A stretch of DNA of 64,000 nucleotides from NCBI GenBank assembly GCA_963843575.1, contig CAWJKZ010000019.1, forward strand, positions 384,001 to 448,000. Reading direction: 5' to 3'. This document shows, piece by piece, positions 5,069 through 58,118 of this stretch (the stretch's first letter is position 1; every line of letters starts with the position of its first letter). The position numbers were made by a program, and so were the translations under genes. The DNA comes from an uncultured Acidobacteriota bacterium. GTDB taxonomy: Bacteria; Acidobacteriota; UBA6911. Below the pieces are notes generated by a model, which worked only from the letters and a program-made list of their open reading frames with translations, was not told where the DNA came from and made no database searches.

Positions 5069-5071
5069 GAA

Positions 5072-14433: not shown

Positions 14434-14531
14434 GTTTGGCCCCCTTGCTCCAGTTGCCGGGAATTCTACACACAACCGCAGGACCCGCAAAGCGAAACAA
14501 CAACGGCGCAGGCCCGATCTGCAAAGTGAAC

Positions 14532-14690: not shown

Positions 14691-14766
14691 ATTCGTCCTG
14701 CCCGGATAGGGCGGTGTTGTGTTACAGTCGGACGCCAAACTGCGAACGTGGAAAAGGAGAGTTCCA

Positions 14767-22161: not shown

Positions 22162-22187
22162 CCTGTCAACCACGAGGAGGCTTCCGC

Positions 22188-26419: not shown

Positions 26420-26448
26420 AGGGGAAAGTAGCAACAGAGAAGCACAGT

Positions 26449-26485
26449 GGGACGCGGATAAACGCTGTTGATCCGCGTCCCATTT
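26449..26485. terminator. Family C hairpin between convergent genes (possible bidirectional terminator)
   Basis: GGGACGCGGAT...ATCCGCGTCCC followed by ATTTT. Confidence 0.55.
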
Positions 26486-26498
26486 TCCTGCCGGTTCG

Positions 26499-27738: not shown

Positions 27739-28067
27739 GCAATGACCTCCCCAAAATTCGTCAAGAGCCGTATAAGTACACCGGAGGCGCAGTGCGGCAC
27801 ACCACGAAGCCTCCGCCTAGGTTTCTTGCCCGGAACCGGACACACCCTATAGCACGGCGGCATCCCAATTGCCAACAGGCAAAGTGAAGGGTACGGCAAC
27901 CGGCCCCGACCTGTCGCGAATGCCTCTGATTTTACCCCGCGTGGACCTGCGTCAATCCGCGTCCGAAAGGGGCTTCTCATGTTAGAGTCTGACTTCCGCC
28001 GAGTCGCCGCAACAGGAGTTGCGCCGCGCGGGCGCGGAGCTTCGTTCACCACCCTGGAGGATGCGGC

Positions 28068-29067: not shown

Positions 29068-29093
29068 GGGACGGACCAGGAGAAGTAATTACC

Positions 29094-29180
29094 CCTCAAT
29101 GAGATGGCGCCAAAACAAGGACGAAAATGCCCCTTATTTCGCGTTTTTGGGGCCATTTTCTGCGATTAAGACCGGTTTGA
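29094..29180 (+). repeat. Family F element (copy 1): degenerate IHF-like site + phased A/T tracts
   Basis: Core CCTTATTTCGCGTTTTTGGGGCCATTTT...GATTAAGACCG shared with 35489, 35601 (reverse), 42531 and 45938. Confidence 0.75.
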
Positions 29181-29189
29181 GTTGAAGGC

Positions 29190-30533
29190 TCAAACCCCGT
29201 TGTCGAGGGCGAAGTAGGGTTTTCGTGTGCTCCACCGGCCCTTGGTGAAGTCGGGGCACTTGACCGGCATGCTCCCCTTGGCGAGCGATTCCTCGGACAG
29301 GGGGATCACGACGCTCATCGTCACCGAGTCGTAGATGTCGATGGGGGTGGGGGTCTTGTGCCGGACCGCTCTGAAGAACTCCTGCAACTCGATGAAGTCC
29401 GGCTCTCCGTGGCCGAACACGCCGCGCGCCTTCCTCTGCTCCGGGTCTCCCAGGCCCTTGTACAGCCTGTGCTCGTACTTCTTCTCGTAAGGCTGCAGAG
29501 GCTCCCAGGTGTGCGCGTCGTTCCCTTTGGGCACGACGCCGTCCATGAAGACCGACCAGCGTTGCTCGTTGTAGAGTCCGCGGGTCCCCTCGATTTCCCA
29601 GCGGTTGTCGTAGGGGCGCGGGGTCTGCATGTCGTTGTTGATGACGATCGTGTTCCCCTTTTTCGTCTTGACGAGCGAGGTGACGATGTCCGACTGCATC
29701 ACCTTTCTCTTGGCCATCGGGTGGTCGGGGCCGAACTTGCGCCGGAAATGGTCGTTGATGCTGACGGAGCGATTGGCCATCGACACCAGGGTGTCGAACG
29801 CATCCCCGCAGTTGATGTCCATCCAGCTCAGCACCGGGCCCAGGCTGTGGGTGGGGTACTGGTCCGCGTTGCGCTTGAGCAGGTAGGCGCCGGTCCAGCG
29901 CGGCTCCCCGTCCTTGTCGAACCACCAGATGTCGGTGCAGTCGTGGGAGTGGGCGCAGTGGCAGTGGATGATTTCGCCGAAGAGCCCGGCGCGGATCATG
30001 TTGAGCACCACCAGGTTCTCCCCGCGGAAGCTCCAGTTCTCGAGCATCATGCAGGGCACCCCAGTCTGCTCCTGGGTGTCGACGAGCTGCCACAGGTCAT
30101 CCATCGTGATGCCGATGGGGACCTCGACCCCGGCGTACTTCCCGGTTTTCATGGCGTGGACCGCCATCGGTGTGTGCCATTCCCAGTAGGTCGCGATGAC
30201 TATCGCGTCCAGATCCTCGCGGTCGATCAGGCGCTTGTAGTCGTGCTCGTCCTTTCCGTAACTCTCCGGCCGCTTCTGGCCGGCCTTCTCCACCATCTCG
30301 ACGGCGTGCTCGAGGTTCGGCTTCTGGATGTCGCAGACGGCGGGAACCTCGATCCCGGGCATGTGGAGCGCGATGTCCAGCAACCCGGATCCCCGATTCC
30401 CCACCCCGACAAAACCGACCCGTATTTTCCGCTCGTTTTGGCCTAAGAGGCCTGTTGGAGCGCCGAATGCGGAAACCATCGCCATTGCGCCACCGGCTTT
30501 CAAAAGGTCACGACGTGTTGTCCCAGGAGCCAT
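29190..30533 (-). CDS. Tat-exported GH109-like NAD+-dependent N-acetylhexosaminidase (Gfo/Idh/MocA fold)
   Basis: TRRDLLK Tat motif, VGVGNRG, IATYWEWH, VEVP, MMLEN, YPTHSLGP, C-terminal PDFTKGRW. Confidence 0.8.
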   Translation of the reverse strand: MAPGTTRRDLLKAGGAMAMVSAFGAPTGLLGQNERKIRVGFVGVGNRGSGLLDIALHMPGIEVPAVCDIQKPNLEHAVEMVEKAGQKRPESYGKDEHDYKRLIDREDLDAIVIATYWEWHTPMAVHAMKTGKYAGVEVPIGITMDDLWQLVDTQEQTGVPCMMLENWSFRGENLVVLNMIRAGLFGEIIHCHCAHSHDCTDIWWFDKDGEPRWTGAYLLKRNADQYPTHSLGPVLSWMDINCGDAFDTLVSMANRSVSINDHFRRKFGPDHPMAKRKVMQSDIVTSLVKTKKGNTIVINNDMQTPRPYDNRWEIEGTRGLYNEQRWSVFMDGVVPKGNDAHTWEPLQPYEKKYEHRLYKGLGDPEQRKARGVFGHGEPDFIELQEFFRAVRHKTPTPIDIYDSVTMSVVIPLSEESLAKGSMPVKCPDFTKGRWSTRKPYFALDNGV

Positions 30534-30648
30534 TCTATCCCTCCGATCTCTGCTGGGAATATACAAATCCCGCCTGACACACGCAACGTCTAGTTATAGA
30601 CTGCCCGGCATGGTTTCCCTGTGCCAAACCCCGAAAGGACGATGCCGC

Positions 30649-32496: not shown

Positions 32497-32508
32497 CCTC
32501 AATCACCC

Positions 32509-32591
32509 CAGGTGGGTCCGGGCTTCAGCCCGGACGTCTTTGCTATGTAGCGACCGCAAACAGCGTCCGGGCTGCAGCCCGGACCCACTTG
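32509..32591. repeat. Family A REPIN
   Basis: Copy 32512-32535 and inverted copy 32565-32588. Confidence 0.9.
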
Positions 32592-32674
32592 GGGTCCCGG
32601 ACGGAATGACTGCAGGGGTGGGAGCGGATCGTTGTCAGCGGGCGGGGGCGGGCCGCCGCGGCCTACTGGCTCAG

Positions 32675-35344: not shown

Positions 35345-35450
35345 TTTTTCCCCCTCCGTCGAAATGCGGGACACCCGAGCAACAATGGCAAAACCGTAGC
35401 ACCCCCCCGCCCACTCGTCAAGTGGGGACGGACCCGGGTAAATTTTTTAA

Positions 35451-35650
35451 ATGGAGGATGATGCGGCCAAAACACCGTCGAAAGGGCGCCTTATTTGCGT
35501 TTTTGGGACCGGTTTTTTGAAAATAAGCCGATGCCGGATGACCGGATTTCCGGCCCTCATCCGCTATTTGGCAAAAACGGGGCGAAAAATCTCAAATAAG
35601 GGCTATTTTTAAGGTAAAATTCGGCATAACCTGCTGATTCGTAATAGTTA
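35451..35650. repeat. Family F elements (copies 2 and 3) in inverted orientation
   Basis: Core at 35489 (+) and 35601 (-); IHF-consensus AATCAGCAGGTTA on the minus strand at 35639-35627. Confidence 0.75.
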
Positions 35651-37070: not shown

Positions 37071-38757
37071 TCACCGGGCGGGGGCGGGCCGCCCCCGCCC
37101 ACTGGCCGCCTCGAGCAGGCGACGGTGCGCGGCTTCGAAACCGGTCACGGTGGCGTCGTAGTCCGTGAACCCGCGGACGACCAGGGTGCAGATCTCGTCC
37201 GCGAGCTTCGGGTCGCGCGCGGCGACCAGGCGCAACAGCTCGTAGTCCTCGATACCCGCTCCCATGGCTTCGAAGCGGACGCTGGACCAGGGGCCGTCCT
37301 TGCCGGGGTACAGGATGTGCGAGTCGCCCGGCGGAAGATGGAAGTCGTGATAGGGCCCGTGCGGGGGGCAGGTGTTCTCGAACGGGTCCTGTTCGGGAAT
37401 GACCTGGTTGAGCCCCCAGTGCAGGTAACCGTCGAGCCGGTAGCGCCAGTTGGCCCAGTGCAGCAGCCGCGTGCGCAGGAGCTCCGTGTCGATGAAGCGG
37501 TTCAGGTGGCGGCCGCTGGGGGCGCAGCAGGTGTAGAACCAGACCGAGTCGCCGCGGCGGCGGTGGGCTTCGAACGCTTCCTGCTGTTTCTCGTAGCTCT
37601 CGCTCAACGGCACCCAGATGTCGACCGCGCCGTCCAGTTCGGGGTTGCCGAGCGCGTCGATCAGCGGGACGCCCGGCAGGAACTTGCGCACGGTCCCGGC
37701 CATGATGCGATAGTCGTCGAAGTCCTTGGGCGAGGGTTCGTCCACGACGTGCTGGGTCGCGAGCCCGTACCAGCCGTTGCGCCGGAGCAGGTCGGCCCAG
37801 GCACGCAGGTATTGCGCGAGGTACTCGTACGCCTCGTGCGACGTCCCGGGTACCGGTTTTCCGTCGACGTTCACGACGAATCGGGCCACCGCGTCCTTCC
37901 GCCGGTCGTGGCTGGCGATGTGCGGGAGTTCGATGTGGGTGAAGCCCTCGCCGAGGAACATCCGGATCATCCGCTCGCTTCTCGAGAAATCGAATTCCCA
38001 CGACCCCGGCCCGGTCTTCTTCACCTCGGGCCCTGCGGGAATGAAGTCGGTCTGGCGGCCGCGCCGCATCATGCGCGCGTACTGCAGGAGCATGTCCCAA
38101 TGCTGCTGCGACCAGGGAGCCACCCCGTGCACCCGTGCCATGTGACTGGTGCTGAACCAGTTGGTTACCCGCAGGTGCCCCTGCTCGGGAACGCGGGCGG
38201 CATAGACCTTCAGTGCGACGGCGATGTCGGCCGTCCCGCTGCCGGTCTGCACCCGGAGCCGTCCCCGCAGCTGACCCGGGGCTGCGTCCGGCGGGATCCT
38301 GAACGACACGTACAGCGCCCCGGTCTCGCCGCGGGCGGGGTCGCCGTTGCGCAGCGGGCGGAGAGCTTCGAACACCCGGTATGGCGCCTTGCGGGTCACG
38401 TAATCCGGGGTCGGCTTGTCCGGCGGGATCGAGCTGCAGGGCGGGCCGGAGTTCTCCGGCACCTTCACGTCGACGAGCTGATACAGCTCCGGGGCGAGTC
38501 CGCCCTCGACGCTGCAGGAGAGACGGCTCGCCCGGCTTCAGCCCGCGCAGCAGCACCTGGAAGCCCGCGCGCCCGCCGCGCGCCGCGTGCAGCTCCACCG
38601 AGCGAACCGGCGCTGCCGGGATCGGAGTGTCCGGATACAGCCACTCGTTGGCGCTCGCGGCGTGGTACTGGAGCGATTGGGTGAAGGCGAAAGTGCCCGA
38701 ACACAACAGCGCGAGCGGCAGCAACGCGCAGAGGGGCAACCAGCGGCGACAGGTCAT
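37071..38757 (-). CDS. DUF4091 (GH123-like) secreted glycoside hydrolase-like protein, frameshifted near 38470-38520
   Basis: Signal MTCRRWLPL..., HVVDEP, VWFYTCCAP, GYLHWGLN, PPGDSHILYPG, SSVRFEAMGAGIEDYELL. Confidence 0.75.
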
Positions 38758-40300: not shown

Positions 40301-41377
40301 ATGGGAATCTTCGACTTCATCAAAGGCGAACTGATCGACATCATCGAGTGGACCGACGACTCGCGCGACACCCTCTCGTACCGCTTCCCGGACGAAGACA
40401 AGGCCATCAAGAACGGCGCTCAGCTGATCGTGCGCGAATCCCAGATCGTGCAGTTCCTGTACCTGGGAGAGTTCGGCGACACCTTCGGGCCCGGCAAACA
40501 CACGCTGACGACCGACAACATCCCGGTCCTCACCCGCCTGAAGTCGTGGAAGTACGGTTTCGAGTCCCCCTTCAAGGCGGATGTCTACTACATCAGCACC
40601 CGCCTGTTCACGGGCAACAAGTGGGGGACGGCGAATCCGATCATGATGCGAGACGAAGACTTCGGCATCGTGCGCGCCCGCGCCTTCGGGACCTTCGATT
40701 TCAAAATCGTCGACCCGAAGCTGTTCCTCAAAGAGGTGGCCGGGTCGGACCAGAATTTCCGCCTCGACGAGTTCGCCGACACAATGAGGTCGCGCATCGT
40801 CAGCGTGTTCAGCGACGCGCTGGCCTCCGCGCGGATCCCGGTGCTCGATGTGGCCAGCCGGTACACCGAGCTGGGGGAGGCGCTCCTGCCGCTCATCAAC
40901 CCGGTCGTGAACGCGAAGTACGGCCTCCACATCAGCAGCTTCATCGTCGAGAACGTCTCGGTGCCGCCCGAAGTCGAGCAGGCGATCGACAAGCGTTCGA
41001 GCATGGCCGCCGTCGGCAACCTGAACGACTTCGTGAAATACCAGATGGGCAAAGGGATGGAGACCGGAGGAGGCGGCGGTGCGGCCGGGACGGCCAGCGA
41101 GCTGGCCGTCGGCTTTGCCATAGCCCAGCAGCTCATGCAGCAGACGCCTATCCTCGGGACGCCTCAGCCTGCGGGCGCGGGCGCGGCCGCCGCGGCGCCG
41201 GCGGCGCCGGCTGCCCCGGCGGTCGAACTGCTCGCCCCCGCCGACGTGGCGAAGATCCTGAACGTGCCCGAGGGCGACGTGATGGCCCTGATCCAATCCG
41301 GCGAGCTCAAGGCCAAGAAGATCGGCTCCAGCTTCCGCATCGCGCGCGCCGCGCTGGACGCCTATCTTGCCTCCTGA
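40301..41377 (+). CDS. SPFH/band-7 (YdjI-like) protein with C-terminal excisionase-like HTH
   Basis: IDIIEWTD, IKNGAQLIVRESQ, FESPFKADVYY, KWGTANPI; C-terminus LLAPADVAKILNV...IQSGELKAKKIGSSFRI. Confidence 0.85.
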   Translation: MGIFDFIKGELIDIIEWTDDSRDTLSYRFPDEDKAIKNGAQLIVRESQIVQFLYLGEFGDTFGPGKHTLTTDNIPVLTRLKSWKYGFESPFKADVYYISTRLFTGNKWGTANPIMMRDEDFGIVRARAFGTFDFKIVDPKLFLKEVAGSDQNFRLDEFADTMRSRIVSVFSDALASARIPVLDVASRYTELGEALLPLINPVVNAKYGLHISSFIVENVSVPPEVEQAIDKRSSMAAVGNLNDFVKYQMGKGMETGGGGGAAGTASELAVGFAIAQQLMQQTPILGTPQPAGAGAAAAAPAAPAAPAVELLAPADVAKILNVPEGDVMALIQSGELKAKKIGSSFRIARAALDAYLAS

Positions 41378-41393
41378 AGCCCCGAAACCGCAC

Positions 41394-42488
41394 ATGGGCG
41401 AAATCTCCGCACTGGAAAAACACCCGTGCCCCGCCTGCGGCGCCCAGGCGGAGTGGAGCGCCGGTAAGCAGCGGCTCGTGTGCTCGTTCTGCGGCACCGA
41501 AAGCCCGTTCGAGGTCGACCGCAGCACCGGCGTGATCCAGGAAATCGACCTCGTCAAGACCCTGCGCGAGCTCCCCGAGGAGCTGCGCGGCTGGCAGGAG
41601 GAGCGTCGCAGCGTCCAGTGCCGGAGCTGCAAGGCCGTCATGGTGTTCGACCCGAAGCGGGTCGGGCAGAACTGCGAGTTCTGCGGCGCGCCCGCCCTGG
41701 TCGACTACAACGAGGTGAAGGCGCCCATCCGCCCGCAGAGCCTCCTCCCGTTCCGGGTGAGCCAGGCCCAGGTGCGCGAGAGCATCCGGAGCTGGTATGC
41801 GGGGAAGTGGTTCGCCCCCGGCGCACTCAAGCGGCGGGCGCTCGTCGACACCGTCCACGGCGTCTACGTGCCCTACTGGACATTCGACGCGAAGGTCCGC
41901 TGCCCCTGGGAAGCCGAGGCCGGCCACTATTACTACGTGACCGAGGAATTCCGCGATCAGCAGGGACGGACCCAGCTGCGGCAGGTCCAGCGCGTCCGCT
42001 GGGAGGCCGCGGCCGGCGAGATCGAGCACTTTTTCGACGACGAGCCGGTCCCCGGAACCCAGGGAATCGACGCCGGGCTCCTGAAGTCCATCGAGCCGTT
42101 CCCGACCGCGGAACTCGTCCCCTACGACACGGCCTACCTGTCGGGGTTCGTGGTGGAACACTACCAGGTCGTTCTGCTCGACGCGGCCAAGAGGTCGCAG
42201 GATTCCATGCACGGGCAGCTGATGGAGTTGTGCGCGGCACAGGTTCCCGGCGACACCCACCGCAACCTGCGGATCCGCCCGCAGTATTCCGGCCAGACCT
42301 TCAAGCACATCCTGGTCCCCGTGTGGCTCCTGACCTACACCTTCGGGTCGAAGGTCTACCAGGTGCTCGTCAACGGCTACACCGGGAAAATGGCCGGCGC
42401 CTACCCCAAGAGCGTCTGGAAAATCCTTGCGGCCGTCGCCGTGATCCTGATCGCCCTGGCCCTCTTCCTCTTCTGGGGACGGACCTAA
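41394..42488 (+). CDS. Zinc-ribbon membrane protein (YdjG-like)
   Basis: Four CxxC motifs (CPAC, CSFC, CRSC, CEFC), GVYVPYWTFD, LVPVW...VNGYTGKMAG, C-terminal TM. Confidence 0.8.
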   Translation: MGEISALEKHPCPACGAQAEWSAGKQRLVCSFCGTESPFEVDRSTGVIQEIDLVKTLRELPEELRGWQEERRSVQCRSCKAVMVFDPKRVGQNCEFCGAPALVDYNEVKAPIRPQSLLPFRVSQAQVRESIRSWYAGKWFAPGALKRRALVDTVHGVYVPYWTFDAKVRCPWEAEAGHYYYVTEEFRDQQGRTQLRQVQRVRWEAAAGEIEHFFDDEPVPGTQGIDAGLLKSIEPFPTAELVPYDTAYLSGFVVEHYQVVLLDAAKRSQDSMHGQLMELCAAQVPGDTHRNLRIRPQYSGQTFKHILVPVWLLTYTFGSKVYQVLVNGYTGKMAGAYPKSVWKILAAVAVILIALALFLFWGRT

Positions 42489-42492
42489 TTCC

Positions 42493-42618
42493 TATTAGTA
42501 ATTTGCGGGAGTTTTCGCCTCAAAATGGCGCCTTATTTTGCGTTTTGAGGGCCGTTTTTTGAGATTAAGGCCGATTACCACCTCACCTCGAAGCCTCGAA
42601 GGACTCGAAGGGTCTCAA
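42493..42618 (+). repeat. Family F element (copy 4) followed by family D tandem repeats
   Basis: TATTAGTAATTTG 38 bp before CCTTATTTTGCGTTTTGAGGGCCGTTTTTTGAGATTAAGGCCGAT; then cctcgaagcctcgaaggactcgaagggtctcaaag. Confidence 0.75.
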
Positions 42619-45600
42619 AGATTTAAAATGCTCAGCAGGGCGGCGGGGGTGTCGTTGTCGAGGACTGCCTCTACCGAGAGGGCGACCCCGAAATCGCGTT
42701 CGATGCGCGTGATCAATCGGATGGCGGAGACGGAATCCCCACCCAACTCAAAGAAGCTCTCGTCCATGCCGACGCCGGGGGCCTCGAGCACCTCCTGGAA
42801 CAGCGCCGTTATGCGCGTTTCCAGGGGAGTGCGGGGGGCCCTTGCCTGGCGCCGCTCTTGCCGGACCGGGTAGGCGGCCAGCGCCGGACGATCGATCTTG
42901 CCGTTGGGGTTAAGTGGCAACGACGCGAGCCGAACGACGCTCCCGGGGATCATGTAGTCGGGTAGGGTCCTGCGCAGCGCGGGTTTGGGATCAGCGTCCT
43001 CGTGCCCGGGTTGGGGCACCCAGAACGCGACAACATCCCTGCCGCGCCCGCCGCTTTGCAGCACGACGGCGCCGTGCCTGACCCCCGGAACGGACAGTAA
43101 CGCCGCTTCTATCTCGCCCAGTTCGACGCGGTAGCCGTGGATCGTCACCTGGCTGTCGGCCCGCCCGAGGCAGACGAGGTTGCCGTTCGGCAGAAAAAAG
43201 CCGCGATCGCCGGTGCGGTACAGGCGGGCGCCGGACTGGCCGAACGGGTCGGGCACAAATCTATCGGCGGTCAGTTCGGTGCGGTTGACGTAGCCGTCGG
43301 CTAGGCACGGGCCGCCGACCACGATCTCGCCGGTCATCCCGATCGGGACCAGGCGCAGGCTGTCGTCCACGATATAGATGACCGCGTTGCTGGCCGGCCG
43401 TCCGATAGGAACGTGCGGCGTGGGCGCCAGGCCGGCCGGGATGTCGTAGAAGCTGACTATCGAAGACGTCTCGGTGCAGCCGTAAACATTGATCAGCCGT
43501 TCGGGTTTGCCCCGCTGCAGCACGCGGGATACCGCATCGGGGTCGGCCTTCTCGCCCCCGAAGCACACGCAACGGACGCCGCCGAACATGTCGGGGCACT
43601 CCTGCGCGGCCAGGTTGAACAGCGAGGTGGTCAGAAACGCGAGGCTCACCCCGTACCTTTCGTACGCCCTCCTGCACTCGAGCGGTCGCACGGCGGTCTC
43701 CTGGGGCAGGATGGCGAGGGTGGCGCCGGAGGCGAGCGCGATCCACACTTCGAAGATGGCGATGGCGAACCCGATGTTGGAAAAGTGGGAGACAACGTCC
43801 TCCGCGGAAGGTGCCAGGAAGTTGGCGTTGGAGGCCAGCCGCAGGATGCTGCGGTGGGGCAGAAGCACGCCTTTCGGCTTGCCGCTCGACCCCGACGTGT
43901 AGAGGATCAGCGCCGGGTCGTCCAGCGAGACCTCGCGGGCAGGGTTCTTCTCCTGTGTGCCGGCCGATGCCGTCCAATCGCCCACCAGGAGGGTCGACGA
44001 GCGTGTCCGCGGCAGTTTGTCCAGCCACTCCCTTTCGGTGAGGACAAACTCGGCGCCACTGTCCTCGAGCATGAACGCGATCCGCTCGGCCGGATAATCG
44101 GCCGGGATCGGGACATAGACGCCTCCGGTCTTGAGCACGCCCAGGACCGCCCGGAGATAAGCCGGGGAGTGTTTCAAGAGGAGCGCAATGCGGCTTCCGC
44201 GGCCGGCGCCGGCCGACCCGAGGCGACGGGCCAGCCCGTTGGCCTGCTCGTTCAGCGCCGAGTAGCTGATGCGCTCATTTGCCCAGAGTATGGCGGGGTG
44301 CTCGGGCTGCCTCGCGGCATGCCGTTCGAAAAGGAGATCGACGGAGGCGGCGGGGAGCGGGGCACCCGTGTCGTTCCACCGGTTGAGGATGAGATCGGCT
44401 TCGGCGGCCGTTATCGAGCGTTGCCGTTCTTCCACGGGCCGACGGCTTCCCGCCGCGCCTTGGGAGAGCGCCCTGCGGTCCACCTTGTTGCTGGGGGTGA
44501 GCGGGAACGAAGGCAATTCCTCGTACCACGAAGGGATTGCGTGCGTCGGCAGCCTGGCGGCGAGAAAACCACGGAGTTCCGAAGCGGAAAGGGGCTGATC
44601 CCCGGCAACGAGACAGGCGGTCAGGGTGGGCGATCCGCCGGCCCCTGGCCGGGCCACGACGACTGCGTCGCGCACCCCGGGGTGCTGTTTTAACGCCGCC
44701 TCGACTTCCCCCGGCTCGATGCGGAAGCCGCGTATCTTCAGCTGCAGATCGGCCCTCCCGAGGAACTCCACCTGCCCATCGGCCCGGCAGCGCCCCAGGT
44801 CTCCCGACCGATACATCCGCTGCCCAGGGTTGAAAGGGTCCGCATAAAAGCGTTCGGCAGTCAGCTGCGGCTCGTTGAGGTAGCCGCGGGCTACGCCGAC
44901 GCCCGATAGGCATATTTCGCCGATCGCGCCGGGTGCGACGGCGGCGCCGTCCTCGTCGAGGATGTAGGAGCGGGTGTTATCAACGGGCCGGCCAATTGGG
45001 ATGGGTCCGTCCGTATCCTCAACCAGGCACCCGTGCGAATAGATGCTTGCTTCGGTGGGGCCATACCAGTTCCAGAGGCGGCGGCAGCGCCGCTGCAGTG
45101 CCGAAGCCAGCGCGGGCGACAACACGTCGCCGCCGCTGATGATCTGGAGCTCAGCGTCGCCCTGCCAGCCGGCGTCCACCAGCATGCTCCAGGTTGCGGG
45201 AGTTGCCTGAATGACGGTAGGCCGGGCGGCTGCGAAAGTATCGCCCAGCCGCCGGGGATCGCGGGCGCTCCTCGAGTCGACGATCACGACCCGCCCGCCG
45301 TAACACAGGGGGAGCAGGAGTTCCAGGGTAGCGATGTCGAACGACAGCGTGGAGAGGGCCGGCATCACGTCCCGGCTGGAAAACCCGAGCGTTCGGCCGG
45401 CCCAGGCCAGGACGTTGGAGACCCCTGCGCGCGTGACCTCCACCCCCTTCGGGTTGCCCGTGGAGCCGGACGTGTAGAGTAGGTACATCAGGGAATCCGG
45501 GTCCGCCGCGGACCCGCAAGGCTCGGCGCTTTGTTCTTCCAGCGCCAGAGACTCGAACGTGAACACCCGCGCGTTTCCGGCCGGTATCGCTTCGACGAGC

Positions 45601-45950
45601 GACTCCTGGGTCAGGAGGAATTGCGCCGCGGAATCGCGCAGCATGAACCGCAGCCGCTCGGCCGGATAGCCGGTGTTGAGCGGCAGGTACGCACCCCCGG
45701 CCTTGAGGATGCCTATCATGCTGATCAACATGGGCAACCCGCGCTCCATGCAGATCGCGACGAACCGATCGGGCCCCACCCCCTGCTTTTGCAGAAACCG
45801 CGCCAGCCGGTTCGAACAAGCCTCCAGCTCCCCATAGCTGATGGACTCCCCCCCGCACACCGCCGCAACACTGGGGACGGACCAGGGCAACTGGTGATCA
45901 ATCAGCAAGTTATGGAATTTATTGCCCGAAAAAGGGGCCTTATTTCGCAT
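42615..45950 (-). CDS. NRPS-like protein: two tandem adenylation domains + one carrier (A-A-T), no C or TE domain; true start uncertain (possibly ~45908)
   Basis: A1: YTSGSTGNPKG, YGPTE, YRSGD, NKVDR. A2: YTSGSSGKPKG, YRTGD, GKIDR. PCP: FFELGGDS. Confidence 0.9.
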   Translation of the reverse strand: MRNKAPFSGNKFHNLLIDHQLPWSVPSVAAVCGGESISYGELEACSNRLARFLQKQGVGPDRFVAICMERGLPMLISMIGILKAGGAYLPLNTGYPAERLRFMLRDSAAQFLLTQESLVEAIPAGNARVFTFESLALEEQSAEPCGSAADPDSLMYLLYTSGSTGNPKGVEVTRAGVSNVLAWAGRTLGFSSRDVMPALSTLSFDIATLELLLPLCYGGRVVIVDSRSARDPRRLGDTFAAARPTVIQATPATWSMLVDAGWQGDAELQIISGGDVLSPALASALQRRCRRLWNWYGPTEASIYSHGCLVEDTDGPIPIGRPVDNTRSYILDEDGAAVAPGAIGEICLSGVGVARGYLNEPQLTAERFYADPFNPGQRMYRSGDLGRCRADGQVEFLGRADLQLKIRGFRIEPGEVEAALKQHPGVRDAVVVARPGAGGSPTLTACLVAGDQPLSASELRGFLAARLPTHAIPSWYEELPSFPLTPSNKVDRRALSQGAAGSRRPVEERQRSITAAEADLILNRWNDTGAPLPAASVDLLFERHAARQPEHPAILWANERISYSALNEQANGLARRLGSAGAGRGSRIALLLKHSPAYLRAVLGVLKTGGVYVPIPADYPAERIAFMLEDSGAEFVLTEREWLDKLPRTRSSTLLVGDWTASAGTQEKNPAREVSLDDPALILYTSGSSGKPKGVLLPHRSILRLASNANFLAPSAEDVVSHFSNIGFAIAIFEVWIALASGATLAILPQETAVRPLECRRAYERYGVSLAFLTTSLFNLAAQECPDMFGGVRCVCFGGEKADPDAVSRVLQRGKPERLINVYGCTETSSIVSFYDIPAGLAPTPHVPIGRPASNAVIYIVDDSLRLVPIGMTGEIVVGGPCLADGYVNRTELTADRFVPDPFGQSGARLYRTGDRGFFLPNGNLVCLGRADSQVTIHGYRVELGEIEAALLSVPGVRHGAVVLQSGGRGRDVVAFWVPQPGHEDADPKPALRRTLPDYMIPGSVVRLASLPLNPNGKIDRPALAAYPVRQERRQARAPRTPLETRITALFQEVLEAPGVGMDESFFELGGDSVSAIRLITRIERDFGVALSVEAVLDNDTPAALLSILNL

Positions 45951-45990
45951 TTTTGCTGCCGTTTTTCTCGACTAAGCACCGATTTGCCGG
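45900..45990 (+). repeat. Family F element (copy 5)
   Basis: IHF consensus AATCAGCAAGTTA at 45900-45912; core CCTTATTT at 45938. Confidence 0.75.
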
Positions 45991-46109
45991 GAATGGCTTG
46001 CCCGACCGGCTGGAGTTGGCAAGTTGCCCGCATATTGCTTCCGCAGGGTTCTTATCGCAGGCCACCCGCGCGCGCTTCAGGCTTTTGTGACAACCCGCGC
46101 AGCACCGTA

Positions 46110-46218
46110 CAAGAACAAGGGCAGAACGCGGATTTCCGCGGATTTGACGGGTTCACGAGGCCTGTCACCAATGCCTTTGTTCTTGATCTGCGTGTATCTG
46201 CGTCAATCAGCGTCCGAA
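46110..46218. repeat. Family C element (direct repeat with 47405-47552)
   Basis: caagaacaa...gaacgcggatttccgcggatttgacgg...ttgttcttgatctgcgtgtatctgcgtcaatcagcgtccgaa. Confidence 0.8.
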
Positions 46219-47274
46219 GGATCTCGAAGTGCCCCGTGGGAGCGGGTGTGCGCGTGACGAGCGAGCTCGAGATCCCCGGGCAGGGCGGCGAGCTTGCGGC
46301 CGGTCAACTCGAGATACACTTTTTCCACCTGGCCGCCGAGCGTATCCCACCCGGCGCCGCGCTCGCCCACGAAACGCGCAATCTGCGCGTTGCCCTTCAG
46401 GTTCGCCCGGATCGCCTCGACCTGCCCGCGGGCTTCGGCCGGCGCTTTCTTCGCCATCAGCGAGCCCACCTGTTCGCGAAGCGCCTTGAAGAACGCCTGC
46501 TGATCGTCGATGACGCCGCTGGCCGCCCTCGCCCCGTGTCCCGGGCAGACGATCTTCGCCCGAAGTTTCTTCGCCTCGTCGAGCGTCCCGATCCACTGTC
46601 CGACGTCGCCGTCGCCCACGTAGTTGAACGGCCCGTTGACGCAGACGTCGCCGGCGAAGAGGATCCCCTCGTTCGGCAGCCACGCAACCGCGTCCCCGTG
46701 GGTGTGCGCCACCCCGAGGTGAATCAGCTCGACCCGGTGCTTCCCGTCGTCGAAGTAGAGTTCCTTCGGAAACAGTACGGACGGCGGTTTGAGCCTGGTC
46801 CCGCTGAGGTCCTTGCGTTGCTTCGCGGCCGACTCCCAGGATCCGGGCTGCTTGCCGTAATAGCCGGTCTCATACTTCTTCATCTCGGCGATCACGCCGG
46901 TGTGGGCCACGGGAACGGCCCCGTTTTCGACGAACACCTGGTTGCCGTACGCGTGATCGCCGTGGTGATGGGTGTCGAACGCGAAGCGGACCGGCTTGGG
47001 CGTTATCGCCCGTATCTTGCCGATGATCTCCCTGGCCCCCGCCGGGAAATTGGCGTCGATCACAAGGACGTAGTCCTCCATCACCACCCACCCGTTGTTG
47101 CACACCGCGTCGGCCGTGTCCGACAGGTCGCCCTGATGGAAGTAGACGTCCGCCGCGACCGGGTCGGGTTTGCGGCTGGACGCCTGCGGCGCTCGCCAGC
47201 AACTCCGCCTCCGCCGCCGCGCTGAGAACCCCGGCGCTGCCGATCAGAAACCCCCTCCTGCTCACGTCGCACAT
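46203..47274 (-). CDS. Tat-exported MBL-fold metallo-hydrolase (cyclase-like), frameshift near 47170
   Basis: SRRGFL Tat motif; THHHGDH, AHTHGD, FAGD, CPGHG. Confidence 0.85.
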
Positions 47275-47404
47275 GGTTAGTCCCTCCCTGGGTAAGTATA
47301 CGCTGTGGAGATGCGGCGGCTCGATGCCGCCAGCGTTCGATATTGGGCGGTATGCAGGGCGATGTGGCGCCGCACTTCCATATCGCTTGACCGGCCAGGA
47401 GAGA

Positions 47405-47552
47405 CAAGAACAAAAGCGGAACACGGATCTTCGCGGATTTGACGGATTGACGCGGATCGGACGCGGCCAGTCACCAAGTGTGATTCCGTGATCTTCCGTG
47501 GGCATCCGAGGCCAATGCCGTTGTTCTTGATCTGCGTCAATCCGCGTCCGAA
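47405..47552. repeat. Family C element (direct repeat with 46110-46218)
   Basis: caagaacaa...gaacacggatcttcgcggatttgacggattgacgcggat...ttgttcttgatctgcgtcaatccgcgtccgaa. Confidence 0.8.
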
Positions 47553-47651
47553 AAAACACGTCAACATATTTATGAAACTGGCCACTAAGTTGGTTTCCGT
47601 GGCGGACAGGCAACGTGAGATGGCACAATGGCAGGCTGAGGAGGTTGCGCG

Positions 47652-48197
47652 ATGACCGACGTGGGGTTGCTCTTGCGGGCGTTGAAATTCTCTGCCGAGA
47701 AACACAGGGACCAACGCAGGAAGGGCGGGGACGCTTCCCCCTACATCAATCACCTGATTGAGGTGGCGCACCTGGTGGCCAACGTCGGCGGCGACACCGA
47801 TCCGCCGGTGCTGGTCGCCGCAGTTCTACACGACACGGTCGAAGATACCCAGACCCTCCCTGCCGACATCGAGCAGGAGTTCGGCCCGCAGGTGCGCCGC
47901 TTCGTGGAGGAGTTGACCGACAACAAGAGCCTCCCCAAAGCGGAACGCAAACGGATCCAGGTCGAACACGCCCCCTCGCTGTCGCCCCAGGCCAAAAAGA
48001 TTAAGATCGCCGACAAGATCTCCAACATCCGCGACGCCACCGACCACCCTCCGGAGAAATGGACGCTCGTGCGGAGGCGGGAGTATCTCGAGTGGGCGAA
48101 CGAAGTCGTCGCGGGATGTCGCGGGAGCAGTCCGGCCCTCGAGGCCCACTTCGATCAGGTCCTCCGGGAGTGCCGCGCGAAGCTGGGGAGCGACTGA
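47652..48197 (+). CDS. HD-domain small alarmone hydrolase (Mesh1/SpoT-HD-like)
   Basis: HRDQRRK...PYINH, AAVLHDTVEDT, ELTD, IKIADKISN; no synthetase domain. Confidence 0.88.
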   Translation: MTDVGLLLRALKFSAEKHRDQRRKGGDASPYINHLIEVAHLVANVGGDTDPPVLVAAVLHDTVEDTQTLPADIEQEFGPQVRRFVEELTDNKSLPKAERKRIQVEHAPSLSPQAKKIKIADKISNIRDATDHPPEKWTLVRRREYLEWANEVVAGCRGSSPALEAHFDQVLRECRAKLGSD

Positions 48198-48224
48198 CGC
48201 CTCGTCCGTTCGGAGCCGTCGGCG

Positions 48225-48670
48225 CTAGAGACGGGAGACGATCAGTTTGCCCAGGTCGGTGAGCTGGCCGATGGTCAGGTACACCTTGTTCTTGACGAAG
48301 TCCGCGAACGAAGTGAGGACGACGCAGTGCGCCCCTTTCCTGACCGCGAGCAGGTTGGCGGGCATGCCGGGCATCACCGCACCCTGGACCGCCTCGTCGC
48401 CGACGCCGCCGACGGCACGGCATACTTGCTCTTGAAGCCGGCGTAGGTCTTCGCGTCCGTGAACTGGATCATCAGGATCAGTTCGCCCGAGGCATCGGCG
48501 AAATTGAGATCGCCGCCGGCCCCGGCAACGGACCCGGCGGGAATAAGTTTGACCCCCTTCATCCCGGTGACCTTTTCGATGTCGGCTCCCGTGAGGTATT
48601 TTTCGCGGGAACCCTGCGCAAACGCACCAAGAGCCAGCCCGAGACTCAAACACAACGCAATTCTCTTCAT
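48225..48670 (-). CDS. Small secreted hypothetical protein, frameshift near 48410
   Basis: Signal MKRIALCLSLGLALGAFA; continuation in ORF 48225..48653 (AVGGVGDEA...). Confidence 0.6.
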
Positions 48671-48749
48671 TGCCGAGACCTCTCTGAAATGTCCTCGCCC
48701 CAAACTCACTTCGAGATTCTTAGAGAAGCCTTAGAGGTGCGTTCCACCT

Positions 48750-50705
48750 CTAAGCGGAAATATCCGTCTTCAGGCGCAGCGGCGGCTTGCCCGAACCGGC
48801 CAGCTTCACGTTCGGCTCGCGTTCGATCACGGCGAGCAGCTCGCGCGTCACGCGGTCGTCGATCTCGGACGAGTGCATCAGGTCCACCGGGTAGCGGATG
48901 AGCGACCTCGAGGCCGGCGGGATCCAGCTGCAGACGGCTCGTCGGCCGCAACGCCCCGGGGGGTGCGGTCGACAGGGTCCTTTCCATGTGGCGGTACTGT
49001 TTTTCCATCTCGTCCCGGTAGCCCGAAAAAATTTCTTCCACGACGCCGCGCAGCCGCTCCTCCGCAGCCCGGTAGTCGCTGTCCGGGGACACCGTCAGGG
49101 AAACCTCGTGCCACACGAAGCTCGTGCCGGGGATCTGTTTGAAAAAGCCCGCATTGGATTGGAACACGATGGAATTCGAGAAACCGACGACTCGTGCCGC
49201 TCGCCGTTTTCTCCCCGCCCCTGACCAGTTCCAGCAGGTGAAACCGCACCAGCCCGATCTCCACCACTTCGCCGGTGATTCCCGCCACCTGCACCCGGTC
49301 GCCCACCCGGATGCCGTACTTGCCGATCAGGAAGAAGTACGCCACGATCGAAACGATGACATTCTGCAGCGCCACGGCGACACCCGCCGTGATGAGCCCG
49401 GCAAACGTGGCGATCGAACTGAGCTCGGTGGCGAACGAAACGACGAGCAGGACGGCGATGACGCACCAGAAGACGATCTTCCGCAGCAGCAGGTACTGAT
49501 ACCTGCGCCGGGCGTCGCGCACGTAACGGAATATCGTGCGCCGCCACAGCTCCGCCCCGCCGATTATGACGGCCAGCAGCAGCCCGAGCACCACCACCCT
49601 GACGACGAGAGTCCTCAATTCCGACGTGTACCGGGTTCTGAGCGTGCCTGCCAGTTCGCGATGTTCCGCTTGTACAGCTCGAGCAGGAGCCCCTGCTTGC
49701 TCAGCGGCAATACGGACGCCGAGGTGCGCTTGAACTGCGAGGTCAGGGCGTCCAGCATCGCCTTCTGCTGGACGAGCACGACCTGGTCCGTGGTGTCGGC
49801 CTGGCCGGCCAGCTCGTCGCCGCGTTTCGACAGCTCTCTCAGGGTGCTGACGAGCGGGGAGCGCAGCTCCCTGGACTGCTGGCTGACGGAGTCGGTCAAC
49901 TGCAACGCGGCGTCGAGCGTGCCGATGCGCCCGGACAGGGCGACGACGTCCCAGGTCAGTGACCAGAGGCCGGAGGGCGCGCCCTTCGGCCCGCCCGAGG
50001 CCAAGCCCGCATACGCCTGTTCGTTGGCGGCGGCGCCCTCCTGCTTGGCCGCCGGCTGTCCCGTGGCCGCGGGGACCGACCTCGCCAGGGCCTCGATCTT
50101 CTCGCGGATCCCGGTGGCGCCCAGCCCGTTGGCGCTCGAACCGCCGACGAAACTCGGTCATGCTGCGGAGCGAGTCCCGTGCGCACCTGCGCGAGCTCGA
50201 GCTGGCTGCGCGTTTCGGCCATCCGGGTCTGGAGCGATTCGCGCTCCCGGCCCGCCGCGCCCGAGAGCTGCTGCCGGAGCGCTTCCAGTTCCGCCTGGTT
50301 TGACCGCACCTGCTGGTCCAGGCGGGCCAGCATCTGGCGCAGCGCCTGGTAGCGCGACGAGCCGGCCTCGCCCCGGGCCGCGGCCTCTTCTTTTTCGATC
50401 GTCTCCGCCTGCGCCCTGGCAAACTCGAAGGCGAGCGACACGGCCTGGTTCGCAATCTGCTGGTTGTCGGCGACGACCATGCCCTCGTCGGCATCGGTTA
50501 CCAGCTGCCGCTGCAGGTCCAGGTGCCGGTACCAGCCGATCGTTGCACTGAGGTACCTGAGCAGGACGGCCGGGTCCAGCTCGGTGCTCGAGGCGGCCTG
50601 CGGCAGTGAAACCCGCGCCCCGGACGCCACCAACGTCAACACCAGTGCCAATGCGCCGCCCAAACGAATCGATCTCATCCGCGAACCCCGGTTCGATTGC
50701 TCCAT
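48750..50705 (-). CDS. MscS-family mechanosensitive channel with N-terminal coiled-coil region, several frameshifts
   Basis: TFAGLITAGVAVALQ...IRVGDRVQVAGITGEVVEIGL; C-terminal IRYPV...; pieces in ORFs 49956, 49615, 48878 and 48706. Confidence 0.8.
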
Positions 50706-50832: not shown

Positions 50833-52695
50833 GTGGATGAGCGACAGCCTGGGATCGCGGCGAGCCGCCGCGGCCCACTTATGCTCTTGGGTGTTCTGCT
50901 GCTTTGTCTCGTTTCTGCGGCCTCGCCCGCGCCTCCGGCAACGGCGGGCGGATCGGTCGAGGCCGAGATGCGCACCCGCGCCGCTCGTTGCCTGGCCGAG
51001 CGGCACCTGGTGGTCGACTACTACCGGATCGGCAGACGGCTTGCCTTTCCGCTCCTCCTCGACCGCATCCCGAGCCCGCGGGCCCCGGTGACGGGAATCC
51101 CCGATTACCCGTGGGAGATCTGGCTCGCGTGGCGGCTCGAAGACCGGCTGAACACCCTTGGTTGGGCCGCCTCGTGGTTCAAAGATGCCGCGGCCGCGGC
51201 CCAGGCCGGACGCGAGCTCGAGGCGATGGCCCGCTGGCCGGCCTTCACCCCCAACGCCAGGCTGGACCTCTGCCTGGGCCACGTGTCGCGCACGATGTGC
51301 GAAGCCTACCGCAAGTGGGACTGGCTCACCCCCGCCACCAGGGACGCGCTCGGCCGTGCGCTCGACCGTCTCGTCGCCGATGCGGCACCCTGGGTCAAGG
51401 AGAGGTTCGGCGCGGGGTTGACGGCACGCGACATTCTCGATTCGGCGGATCCGCACACGCGGGTCCACAACATCCCCTTCATCGGTCTCATCGGCGCCGC
51501 CATGGCCGCCAACACCAGGGGGGCCGCGCCTGCGGCGTCCCTCAACGGGCAGCTGACCGCGCTCATCGAGGTCCTGACGACGCTCCGGCAGAGCGGCTAT
51601 AGTGAAGCGGTGGGTTACGACGGCTACCTGCTGGATTTCGTGACGAGCTGGCTCGCAACCCTCCCGCCGGCCTCCCGGGAATCCGTGCTGCGGAGGTTCG
51701 ACCTCGAAGGGTTTTTCCCTGAATCCTGCATGCTGGGTGCCCCGGGCGACGCGACCCGGGTCGCCGAACTCTCCGACGTGGAACCGCACCAGATGCCCTT
51801 CCACATCTCGGCGCAGGCGCGGCTGCAGTCGTTTCGGCCGCAGCCGCTGCGGGCCTGGTACCTGCGCCAGTGCAGGCTGGACGTGCTCCGGTCCGACACG
51901 CTCGCCCTCCTCCGCACGCTGGCGGCGGGCGCGCCGCAGGGGGCCCCGCCCCCGGCCGTGCGCGTCCTCGACGCGCACTACGCCAAAGTCCTGCGCTCGG
52001 GTTGGGCCGCGAGCGACCTCGCCGTGGCCGTCGCCGCCGGCAATTCGCCCGCAGGGCACATCCACTTCGACTTCGGCTCGATCACGATCGGAACCGCCGG
52101 CCGGTGGCTGATCGCGGATCCGGGCTACCAGCAGTACATGCCCGGCGAGGAACGCGAGTTCACGATCGGGCCGCGGGCTCACAACGCGCCCGTCCTCGAC
52201 GGCAGGGCCCAGGAGAAGAAGGCCGGCAGGGTTCTCTCGGAAGACACCGACCAGGTTGGGACCCTCAGGCTCGCGCTCGACCTGACCGCCTGCTATCCGG
52301 CGGAACTCGGCGTCGGGCGCGCCATGAGGACGGTCTGGTTGGCCGGGAAGAGCCTCGTGGTCGTTGCCGACGAGCTCGACGCCGGAAACGCCGGCACCCA
52401 GGCCTATCACTGGCACGGTGCACCCGACGCCGCGTGGCAGGTGCGGGACAACTGGGCGATGCTCTACGCCGGCAAGGGGGCCACGATCTGGTTCTCGAGC
52501 CCGGGATTTGCCGTCTCGGACGCCGATCTCGTGAGGCTCCCCGGATCGCGCGGCCAGGTGAGCCTGGTGTGCAGCCGCAAACCGGTCCCGGTGACGTGGT
52601 GGGTGTTCGCCACGGGCGATGCCCCTCCCGCCGTGGCGTCGGACGCCGCCGCGCGCTCGCTGCGGATCGGCGGCCTGCGGTTCAGCCTCGACTGA
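50833..52695 (+). CDS. Heparinase II/III-family (polysaccharide lyase-like) protein
   Basis: VHN, YSEAVGY, GHIHFDFGS, LIADPGY, RAHNAPVLDG; RBS AAGGAGG. Confidence 0.7.
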   Translation: MDERQPGIAASRRGPLMLLGVLLLCLVSAASPAPPATAGGSVEAEMRTRAARCLAERHLVVDYYRIGRRLAFPLLLDRIPSPRAPVTGIPDYPWEIWLAWRLEDRLNTLGWAASWFKDAAAAAQAGRELEAMARWPAFTPNARLDLCLGHVSRTMCEAYRKWDWLTPATRDALGRALDRLVADAAPWVKERFGAGLTARDILDSADPHTRVHNIPFIGLIGAAMAANTRGAAPAASLNGQLTALIEVLTTLRQSGYSEAVGYDGYLLDFVTSWLATLPPASRESVLRRFDLEGFFPESCMLGAPGDATRVAELSDVEPHQMPFHISAQARLQSFRPQPLRAWYLRQCRLDVLRSDTLALLRTLAAGAPQGAPPPAVRVLDAHYAKVLRSGWAASDLAVAVAAGNSPAGHIHFDFGSITIGTAGRWLIADPGYQQYMPGEEREFTIGPRAHNAPVLDGRAQEKKAGRVLSEDTDQVGTLRLALDLTACYPAELGVGRAMRTVWLAGKSLVVVADELDAGNAGTQAYHWHGAPDAAWQVRDNWAMLYAGKGATIWFSSPGFAVSDADLVRLPGSRGQVSLVCSRKPVPVTWWVFATGDAPPAVASDAAARSLRIGGLRFSLD

Positions 52696-55647: not shown

Positions 55648-55784
55648 GGTCACATCCTAAACGAAGACGCTCGAATCGGTTCGGCGGATTGAACCCGGCC
55701 CCGCGGCCGTTCGTCCGGCATGCACTGAAATAGTATCAGGCGCGCCGGCACCTTACCTGCTTCAATAACGCGTCCCCTCTGAAT

Positions 55785-55905
55785 CAAGTGGGTCCGGGCT
55801 TTAGCCCGGACGTCTTTTGACTTTCGCTAAGCAGCAACCGCAAATAACGTCCGGGCTGAAGCCCGGACCCACTTGGCTGAAGCCCGGACCCACTTGACCC
55901 ACTTG
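55785..55905. repeat. Family A REPIN with partial end duplications
   Basis: 55788-55811, inverted 55849-55872, truncated duplicates 55875-55905. Confidence 0.9.
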
Positions 55906-57791: not shown

Positions 57792-57843
57792 ACCAGACTA
57801 TATAGCACAGATCAACAGCCAGGTAAGGTTACGTAGATAAGGT

Positions 57844-58038
57844 CAAGTGGGTCCGGGCTTCAGCCCGGACGTTTTTAGAACCGTCTCCTACCGCTACACA
57901 TGTACTGCATAGCGACTGCAAAAGGCGTCAAGTGGGTCCGGGCTTCAGCCCGGACGCCGTTTGCAGTCGCTGTGCAGGGCAGTTGGAACCATATGGAACG
58001 GATTTGAATACGTCCGGGCTGAAGCCCGGACCCACTTG
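57844..58038. repeat. Family A REP cluster
   Basis: 57847-57870, 57932-57955 and inverted 58012-58035. Confidence 0.9.
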
Positions 58039-58118
58039 GCTGTGTGCGAGTAAGGTACGGCGCAGCTTGGCGCGGCGGCCTCGTGGTAGCATGTGTTCCG
58101 ACCCCGGGGAGGCTGACG

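Follow-up and report, generated by a model that had tools for sequence, protein, structure and literature searches.

An A-A-T NRPS-like protein of an uncultured Acidobacteriota bacterium: origin by loss of a T-C segment and a possible dual-loading role

Tandem adenylation (A) domains were described in 2016 as "a very rare feature" of nonribosomal peptide synthetases (NRPSs) (PMC5238615), and more recently they have been recognised as a recurrent solution for the incorporation of keto acids (PMC13643306). Here we analyse a variant of this arrangement in a 64,000-nucleotide stretch of DNA from an uncultured Acidobacteriota bacterium (contig CAWJKZ010000019.1, positions 384,001 to 448,000; hereafter the window), where an open reading frame (ORF) on the minus strand, 42615-45950, encodes a protein of 1111 aa, P0001, with the order A1-A2-T, T being the thiolation, or carrier, domain (also called peptidyl carrier protein, PCP).

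The closest described systems are PyrG (pyridomycin) and AulA (auriculamide, Herpetosiphon aurantiacus), both A1-A2-KR-PCP, where KR is a ketoreductase; their A2 activates 3-methyl-2-oxovalerate, and their A1 is inactive or dispensable (PMC5238615, PMC10510592). The dolastatin 15 module Dol15D-M2 has the order C-Ax-KAL-KR-T, with a condensation (C) domain and a keto-acid ligase (KAL), and 125 homologues, and its second adenylate-forming domain likewise activates a branched 2-oxo acid; a proposal has been made that the ligase was inserted between C-Ax and KR-T and that the Ax decayed thereafter, along with a structural role of the Ax and a continuum of Ax reduction (PMC13643306). An uncharacterised fungal A-A-T-Te protein has also been tabulated (PMC12368960). 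Outside the tandem arrangements, amide bonds are formed in streptothricin biosynthesis by ORF19, a stand-alone A domain (Maruyama et al. 2012, cited in PMC11546977). A literature search on tandem adenylation domains, NRPS-like A-A-T proteins, PyrG and auriculamide yielded no bacterial A-A-T protein lacking both KR and C.

Domain architecture and comparison with described tandem A domains

The ORF is intact from ATG to TGA. With Pfam, P0001 gave AMP-binding twice, AMP-binding_C twice and PP-binding at residues 1046-1106 (E 7e-15). With TIGR01733 (NCBIfam), each A domain being scored alone, A1 reached 426.1 bits and A2 389.7 bits (cut-off 317.4), and the core motifs A3 (P-loop), A5 (Thr-Glu), A7 (Asp) and A10 (Lys) are present in both. 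The Condensation domain (PF00668) was not found in P0001 by Pfam at E<=0.01; a purpose-built hidden Markov model (HMM), made from four Pfam-delimited C domains and able to locate C domains in 231 of 234 matched proteins, gave a sole spurious match at an unrelated place (E=0.067). Nor was a ketoreductase family found in P0001 by Pfam, A2 ending at about residue 1035 and T starting at 1046. The G+C content of third codon positions (GC3), read in frame, is 0.77-0.91 in every 100-codon block of the ORF, and the coding signal thus runs through the A1-A2 junction without a break. The original prediction for this gene, made from the letters of the sequence, of two A domains and one carrier with no C domain, and of a P-loop and an A10 lysine kept in both A domains, was thus reproduced by Pfam, TIGR01733 and motif reading. 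The ten pocket positions of each A domain were mapped from the motifs and are given in GrsA-PheA numbering. The features of the gene are as follows.

42615-45950, minus strand: whole ORF, encoding the A1-A2-T NRPS-like protein P0001 (Pfam domains, motifs and GC3)
45870-45950, minus strand: codons 1-27, MRNKAPFSGNKFHNLLIDHQLPWSVPS, repeat-encoded and not homologous to the N-terminus of the close relative described below
44760-45869, minus strand: A1 large (core) subdomain, residues 28-397, with A3 YTSGSTGNPKG, A4 FDIA, A5 YGPTE and A7 YRSGD
44463-44759, minus strand: A1 small C-terminal subdomain, residues 398-496, with A8 GRADLQLKIRGFRIEPGEVE and A10 SNKVDR, containing K489
44376-44462, minus strand: deletion junction, residues 497-525, also present in the relative P0002
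42846-44375, minus strand: A2, residues 526-1035, with A3 YTSGSSGKPKG, A4 FAIA, A5 YGCTE, A8 GRADSQVTIHGYRVELGEIE and A10 NGKIDR, containing K1018
43764-43766, minus strand: codon of Ala729, at the position of the amine-binding Asp (Asp235 of GrsA-PheA)
42633-42815, minus strand: carrier (T/PCP) domain, residues 1046-1106 (PP-binding)
42732-42734, minus strand: codon of the phosphopantetheine serine S1073, in FFELGGDSV

Like AulA and PyrG, P0001 has two consecutive A domains followed by one carrier, the second A domain lacking Asp235 and having a branched-aliphatic pocket; the codes of AulA-A2 (GIFWLGASGK) and of A2 in P0001 (AIFFCGVSIK) are identical at 5 of 10 positions (PMC5238615), and neither AulA nor P0001 has a C domain. 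Unlike these proteins, P0001 has no KR between A2 and T, lies outside any biosynthetic cluster, and keeps in its A1 the A3 motif, the A7 Asp (YRSGD) and the A10 Lys (K489), all lost in AulA-A1 and PyrG-A1 (PMC5238615, PMC10510592). With Dol15D-M2 it shares a canonical-looking A domain followed by a second adenylate-forming domain without Asp235, as well as a history of domain rearrangement (PMC13643306). However, second domains of the Dol15D type form a separate keto-acid ligase clade and are annotated by antiSMASH as CoA ligases (PMC13643306), whereas A2 of P0001 scores as a canonical A domain and has Asp-containing Ile/Val domains as its nearest neighbours, which argues against its membership in that clade. 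Moreover, both the C domain and the KR of Dol15D-M2 are absent from P0001, and its origin by a T-C deletion, marked by a C-domain remnant, differs from the insertion described for the Dol15D type (PMC13643306). Tandem A domains as such are therefore already known; because P0001 has no KR, a non-degenerate A1, a canonical-looking A2 and a different, deletion-based origin, it is an unusual variant of the arrangement and lies outside the PyrG/AulA/Dol15D family.

The A1-A2 junction and its origin

After the A10 motif of A1 the sequence reads ...NKVDRRALSQGAAGSRRPVEERQRS and continues directly as ITAAEADLILNRWNDT... Within it, RRPVEE (residues 503-508) aligns to the residues standing just before PP-binding in an ordinary module (P0146), and represents the about six remaining residues of a T domain that was lost. 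The linker ITAAEADLILNRWNDT aligns to C-domain ends, and W525 is the start of the WNDT motif of C-A linkers. Of the 275 high-scoring segment pairs spanning W525, 241 have a complete C domain whose end lies a median of 3 residues (interquartile range 3-3) ahead of the aligned W525, so that ITAAEADLILNR (residues 513-524) corresponds to the last helix, 12 residues long, of the lost C domain; homology starts exactly at I513 in 139 of the 275, this being the commonest start. The remnants of a T and of a C domain side by side show, at the level of alignment, that P0001 descends from a two-module A(Gly)-T-C-A(X)-T NRPS from which about 530 residues (T1 and nearly all of C) were removed in frame by a single deletion. 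The original prediction had likened the linker to a post-C-domain segment and had offered the loss of T1-C by deletion as its alternative; the alignments agree with the former, and the latter is strongly supported as the origin of the gene.

Homologues were sought in a collection of 5.8 billion proteins. The close relative P0002 (707 aa), which comes from another assembly, is identical to P0001 at 572 of 694 residues (82%, 1 gap); the alignment begins at query residue 416 and takes in the same junction, from the A1 small subdomain over the linker to A2 and T. When residues 430-620 served as the query, P0002 was matched with 74% identity and 100% coverage, and among the 120 matches listed only P0001 itself and P0002 span the junction contiguously. 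P0146 was considered as a second A-A junction (95% coverage) and rejected because the alignment passes through its C domain at 29% identity. The other listed full-length matches contain a Condensation domain without exception (118/118), with at most 49% identity and at most 56% query coverage. Furthermore, among shorter proteins we found P0237 (426 aa), identical at 307 of 370 residues (83%, 0 gaps) over query residues 28-397 and recorded on a contig equal in length (105,101 bp) to that of P0002; the last ~30 residues of P0237 are the A8 region in another frame. P0237 and P0002 thus make up one A-A-T gene of the relative, broken by a single frameshift where the A1 core meets its small subdomain, at about codon 398, the frameshift being either real or a sequencing error.

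Because junction and A2 pocket recur unchanged in a relative 82-83% identical to P0001, the junction is genuine and not an assembly artefact, and the comparison of the two copies shows a deletion evidently older than their split, the relative being the only one known. The original prediction had coupled C-containing closest homologues with a unique junction as what would speak against it; the former were found (118/118 listed), but the junction is not unique, as it is shared with the 82%-identical relative. The N-terminus of the relative (MLVCNDLSRPDP; LVCNDLSRPDP) aligns to the WNDT C-A linker, so A1 itself probably once followed a C domain.

The best non-trivial homologues are ordinary A-T-C-A-T NRPSs (~1650-1750 aa; P0004, P0128), which start with A and end with T just as P0001 does and likewise contain Gly-type and Ile/Val-type A domains, but keep the T1 and C, ~530 residues, that are missing in P0001; their identity is at most 49%. 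P0004 was rejected as a possible parent, since it is not collinear, its Gly domain being in module 2. In the searches of the protein collection the known family thus has two members, one of them frameshifted. A search of genome contigs, in a collection without the genome of either the window or the relative, gave 48 related loci, none above 45% identity, and the ESM Atlas returned ordinary A-T clusters of ~600 aa and no large cluster with A-A-T, its small clusters being not searchable.

Substrate pockets, selection and possible function

The pocket code of A1 by motif-based mapping is DILQIGWIYK, the same as in the by-eye reading of the original prediction, which had placed it near the glycine code. 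The 45 best-matching A domains of A1 (43-49% identity) have almost all the code DILQxGxIWK, and the commonest code among its top 80 A-domain matches is DILQLGLIWK, which we take to be the standard glycine code. Judged by these best matches, A1 is glycine-type. The A4 motif (FDxS), which holds Asp235, reads FDIA in A1.

The code of A2, AIFFCGVSIK, is the same in P0002. The nearest A domains (40-43% identity) have DAFFLGVTFK or DAFWLGGTFK, which are Ile/Val-type codes. At position 235, where A2 has Ala729 (FAIA) and no Asp, 422 aligned A-domain segments have Asp in 384 cases and Ala in 3, and the column is 92% Asp in an alignment of 414 reference A domains. The A5 Pro is carried by 327 of the 384 Asp domains vs. 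5 of the 37 non-Asp domains (Fisher p 3e-19, a value which overstates independence, the compared domains being related to one another). Judged by this comparison, A2 has a branched-aliphatic pocket without the amine-binding Asp, and the joint loss of Asp235 and the A5 Pro fits a substrate without an alpha-amino group. The same class of substrate had been suggested in the original prediction on the grounds of FAIA (Ala codon 43764-43766) and of YGCTE in place of YGPTE, both of which are indeed read in the translation. The published codes for 2-oxo acids, VGMWNGASVK, VGMWNGTSIK, VGMWNGVSVK, VGMTIGASGK and GIFWLGASGK (AulA-A2), combine a small non-polar V or G at 235 with G301, S330 and K517 (PMC5238615, Table 1), and A2 does likewise, with Ala at 235; in keto-acid-activating domains a hydrophobic residue is described in place of Asp235 (PMC13643306).

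Two further NRPS forms around non-amino-acid A domains were seen among the proteins found. P0206 is an A-T-A-T protein without a C domain, both A domains of which lack Asp235, and a recurrent family of ~1690 aa (P0118, P0053, P0068 and others) has the order A(non-Asp SSRFxxMGIK, A5 YGQTE)-T-C-A(Gly)-T.

To compare the two copies of the gene, the differences between them were set against column conservation (Mann-Whitney), the logic being that neutral drift spreads differences evenly. In the A1 core, 2 of 76 residues differ at columns at least 80% conserved vs. 38 of 163 at columns below 50% (p 5e-6); the figures for A2 are 2 of 110 vs. 39 of 198 (p 1e-6). Within the A1 motifs A3-A7 only 2 of the 47 residues are not shared by the copies, both of them variable positions of A6, against ~8 differences expected (binomial p ~0.01). 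Both pocket codes, the catalytic motifs and the carrier serine are alike in the two copies, and over 1064 aligned residues at 17-18% divergence there are one 1-residue indel and the one frameshift. Identity to the relative is 83% in the A1 core, 72% in the A1 small subdomain and 86% in A2. The depletion of differences at conserved columns of both A domains argues for purifying selection on both of them after the deletion, and both A domains and T look to have been under constraint since the split.

We tentatively read P0001 as a dual-loading starter unit, A(Gly)-A(non-amino acid)-T, and hold this reading with less than even confidence. A2 and the adjoining T would work as an ordinary loading didomain, where A2 would adenylate a branched aliphatic acid without an alpha-amino group, the likeliest candidates being the 2-oxo and 2-hydroxy analogues of Ile or Val, and thioesterify it to Ser1073. 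A1, with its complete glycine-type site, may still make glycyl-AMP, and as T is the only carrier that A1 can serve, the whole would be a starter unit loaded from two sides. A partner protein, with its gene at some other place in the genome, would then accept the acyl- or glycyl-thioester or release it.

Several points weigh against this reading. We know of no case where two A domains load one carrier. A scan of 63 ORF translations from the whole 64-kb window (part of a contig of 528,906 bp) turned up no member of the condensation, thioesterase (TE), phosphopantetheinyl transferase (PPTase), MbtH or ketoreductase families; the statement of the original prediction that no TE or PPTase is adjacent thus holds for the whole window, and the gene is an orphan. 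P0001 has no ketoreductase, whereas all characterised 2-oxo-acid modules have one. The two prolines of LPxP, usual after A10, are absent from A1; in the A1 small subdomain the differences are not depleted at conserved columns (3/20; p 0.18); and A1 bears a lesion in both copies, namely the repeat-derived first 27 residues in the window and the frameshift at the A8 hinge in the relative. Both A domains stand at the divergent end of the family when departures are counted at the 80 columns at least 90% conserved: A1 has 8, a count reached by 7.2% of the reference domains, and A2, at the divergent edge of A domains, has 11, reached by 2.9% of the 414. Its departures include two A8 variants, K->T (in a column that is 99% K) and R->H, the Gly and Arg of GxR being kept; K->T occurs in 1 of the 422 aligned domains, and that one is the relative. 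The constraint test was made from protein sequences only. Finally, several genes in the window are disrupted, which gives a higher prior for gene decay in this genome.

Some of these points would equally suit a protein in which only A2-T works, as a stand-alone didomain loading a non-amino acid, while A1 is retained as a non-catalytic scaffold like the Ax of PyrG, AulA or Dol15D. We regard this as unlikely, although the first A domain is dispensable or inactive in the described tandem-A modules (PMC5238615, PMC10510592, PMC13643306). The known Ax have lost the A3 P-loop, the A7 Asp and the A10 Lys (PMC5238615, PMC13643306), all of which A1 keeps along with its unchanged glycine pocket, its nearly invariant A3-A7 motifs and a score of 426 bits on TIGR01733. 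It is true that the lesions of both known copies fall in A1 and none in A2-T, that the A1 small subdomain looks relaxed and has lost LPxP, and that in the relative A2-T and the A1 small subdomain make up a separate ORF of 707 aa. The origin by T-C deletion, on the other hand, does not match the insertion of a ligase between C-Ax and KR-T (PMC13643306).

Unlikely to about the same degree is the view that P0001 is a decaying, non-functional relic, that is, a fragment of a lost assembly line, 5′-truncated, internally deleted and orphaned between repeats. The 3.3-kb frame is open; over the aligned residues the copies have accumulated only the one indel and the one frameshift; substitutions strongly avoid the conserved columns of both A domains; and the catalytic motifs, pocket codes and carrier serine are conserved in both copies. 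Decay would explain the N-terminus of the relative, which indicates that A1 once followed a C domain, as well as the internal T-C deletion, the start codon supplied by a repeat, the frameshift in the relative, the lack of an NRPS partner within the 64 kb, the other broken genes of the window and the finding of only two members.

Least probable, in our estimate, is what the original prediction had proposed, the synthesis of an amide without a C domain; in this scheme glycyl-S-pantetheine loaded by A1 would enter A2 as the free thiol does and its amine would attack the (2-oxo)acyl-adenylate, to give an N-acyl- (or 2-oxoacyl-)glycyl-S-T released by a hydrolase. The Asp235->Ala exchange and the rare A8 and linker changes would then be adaptations that followed the loss of the C domain, and P0001 a minimal A-A-T peptide-bond machine. 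This is the only scheme that uses every part of the protein and explains selection on both active sites; Asp235->Ala would shut out a competing second amine, no residue could lengthen the pantetheine arm by less than glycine does, and the unusual changes of A2 sit in A8 (K->T) and in the A-T linker. We take A8 and the A-T linker to line the pantetheine channel. ORF19 of streptothricin is a precedent for an A domain that, with no C domain at hand, couples its adenylate to an amine on a carrier, but it is a separate single-domain protein acting on beta-lysine, so that the likeness is a mechanistic analogy only (cited in PMC11546977). What tells against the scheme is that A1 would have to load a carrier tethered beyond A2, although its small subdomain and the linker look relaxed, and that the ancestral order (Gly donor, X acceptor) would have to be reversed. 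A gene for a metallo-beta-lactamase-fold hydrolase does lie directly upstream on the same strand, yet it lends no real support, since its product matches no thioesterase family, the named families being below cut-off, and a hairpin separates the two genes.

Whether P0001 is the dual-loading starter unit that we tentatively prefer or one of these alternatives, the locus represents a natural experiment, where a clean T-C deletion has left two complete-looking A domains on one carrier and this state has been kept in two lineages. If both A domains are active, then either a carrier is served by a non-adjacent A domain or an A domain replaces C in bond formation, and NRPS engineering could profit from either outcome, if true. 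Should A1 be no more than a passenger, the protein would be an early stage of the Ax degeneration proposed for keto-acid modules (PMC13643306).

Repeats and genomic neighbourhood

The gene is bracketed by direct repeats, as the original prediction stated. They belong to a family (D9) with four copies in the window, all in the same orientation, and the copies at 42520-42569 and 45927-45976 flank the NRPS gene. The features beside the gene are the following.

45873-45976, minus strand: upstream bipartite repeat, with block 1 at 45927-45976 and block 2, GGTCCGTCCCC, at 45873-45883; overlaps the ORF start
42475-42569, minus strand: downstream repeat copy in the same orientation, starting 46 nt past the stop codon
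46203-47105, minus strand: metallo-beta-lactamase-fold protein, 300 aa, the only candidate partner (Lactamase_B E 6.5e-21)

The element is ~100 nt long (copies at 29067-29170, 35424-35527, 42475-42569 and 45873-45976) and consists of an A/T-rich block 1 with the hairpin CCTCAAAA...TTTTGAGG and, ~45 nt away, block 2, GGTCCGTCCCC, which has four exact instances, one in each copy (0.14 expected by chance). An ORF end or start is overlapped by three of the copies; in the downstream copy, block 2 reaches into the final codons of the convergent gene 41367-42488(+). The upstream copy contains the start codon of the NRPS gene (ATG at 45950) together with codons 1-27, an in-frame TAG standing 21 nt upstream of the ATG. 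Homology to P0237 begins at residue 28, directly after the element, so the present N-terminus is repeat-derived, a point that the original prediction had not noted. That two of four copies flank one gene, among several dozen intergenic regions, is not remarkable alone. Rfam, run over 41000-49000, which covers two copies of the element, gave nothing above threshold and one miRNA match with E=0.73, and the repeats are thus not a known RNA family; a degenerate pattern search for block 1 gave no match.

A second repeat family (46109-46218 and 47404-47552; also 27910-27967 and 1438-1495), 83-96% identical over blocks of 23-52 nt, brackets the gene for the metallo-beta-lactamase-fold protein. The window also contains a palindromic REP-like family, GGGTCCGGGCTTCAGCCCGGAC, in at least 8 copies, which often form inverted intergenic pairs (14522-14691, 32499-32592, 55775-55876, 57825-58039).

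The neighbours of the NRPS gene encode glycoside hydrolases, transporters, an SPFH protein, a small HD hydrolase and, directly upstream on the same strand, the metallo-beta-lactamase-fold protein. The latter was considered as a releasing thioesterase and rejected, as it matched only generic metallo-beta-lactamase, SoxH-related and B1-lactamase profiles, all below cut-offs. Between its gene and the NRPS gene there is a terminator-like hairpin (46139-46121), situated in a copy of the second repeat family; a promoter and terminator scan gave 0 promoters and 2 terminator-like sites vs. 4.8 expected, an uninformative outcome. The setting is a polysaccharide-utilisation landscape and not a secondary-metabolite cluster.

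The window holds a dense set of glycan-degrading genes, comprising five GH20 paralogues with internal DNA similarity, GH109, GH123, a heparinase II/III-like gene and GH95 (10910-13027, 16998-21125, 22110-24581, 28068-28640, 29190-30566, 37071-38468, 50833-52695 and 61098-63473). A gene of the DegT/DnrJ/EryC1 aminotransferase type (26320-27738, minus strand) has an in-frame stop (…RRLD, stop, MIAPR…), its last ~100 codons are seemingly out of frame, and it is probably a pseudogene. Other genes that look split or truncated lie at 16998-19071, 28068-29067, 9983-10717 and 3885-5342; among them, one GH20 gene is split over two overlapping ORFs, a separate fragment has the GH20b domain only, an outer-membrane barrel is represented by profile positions 597-831 of 838 only, beside a low-GC stretch (0.58 at 8001-10000), and a GFO/IDH/MocA gene is reduced to its C-terminal domain. 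The split genes reflect either a pseudogene-rich genome or assembly errors.

Two further genes of the plus strand deserve mention. The ORF 40301-41377 encodes an SPFH/Band-7 domain fused to an excisionase-type HTH_17 domain, and 47652-48197 encodes a stand-alone HD domain of 181 aa, like the hydrolase part of RelA/SpoT, which makes it a candidate small alarmone hydrolase.

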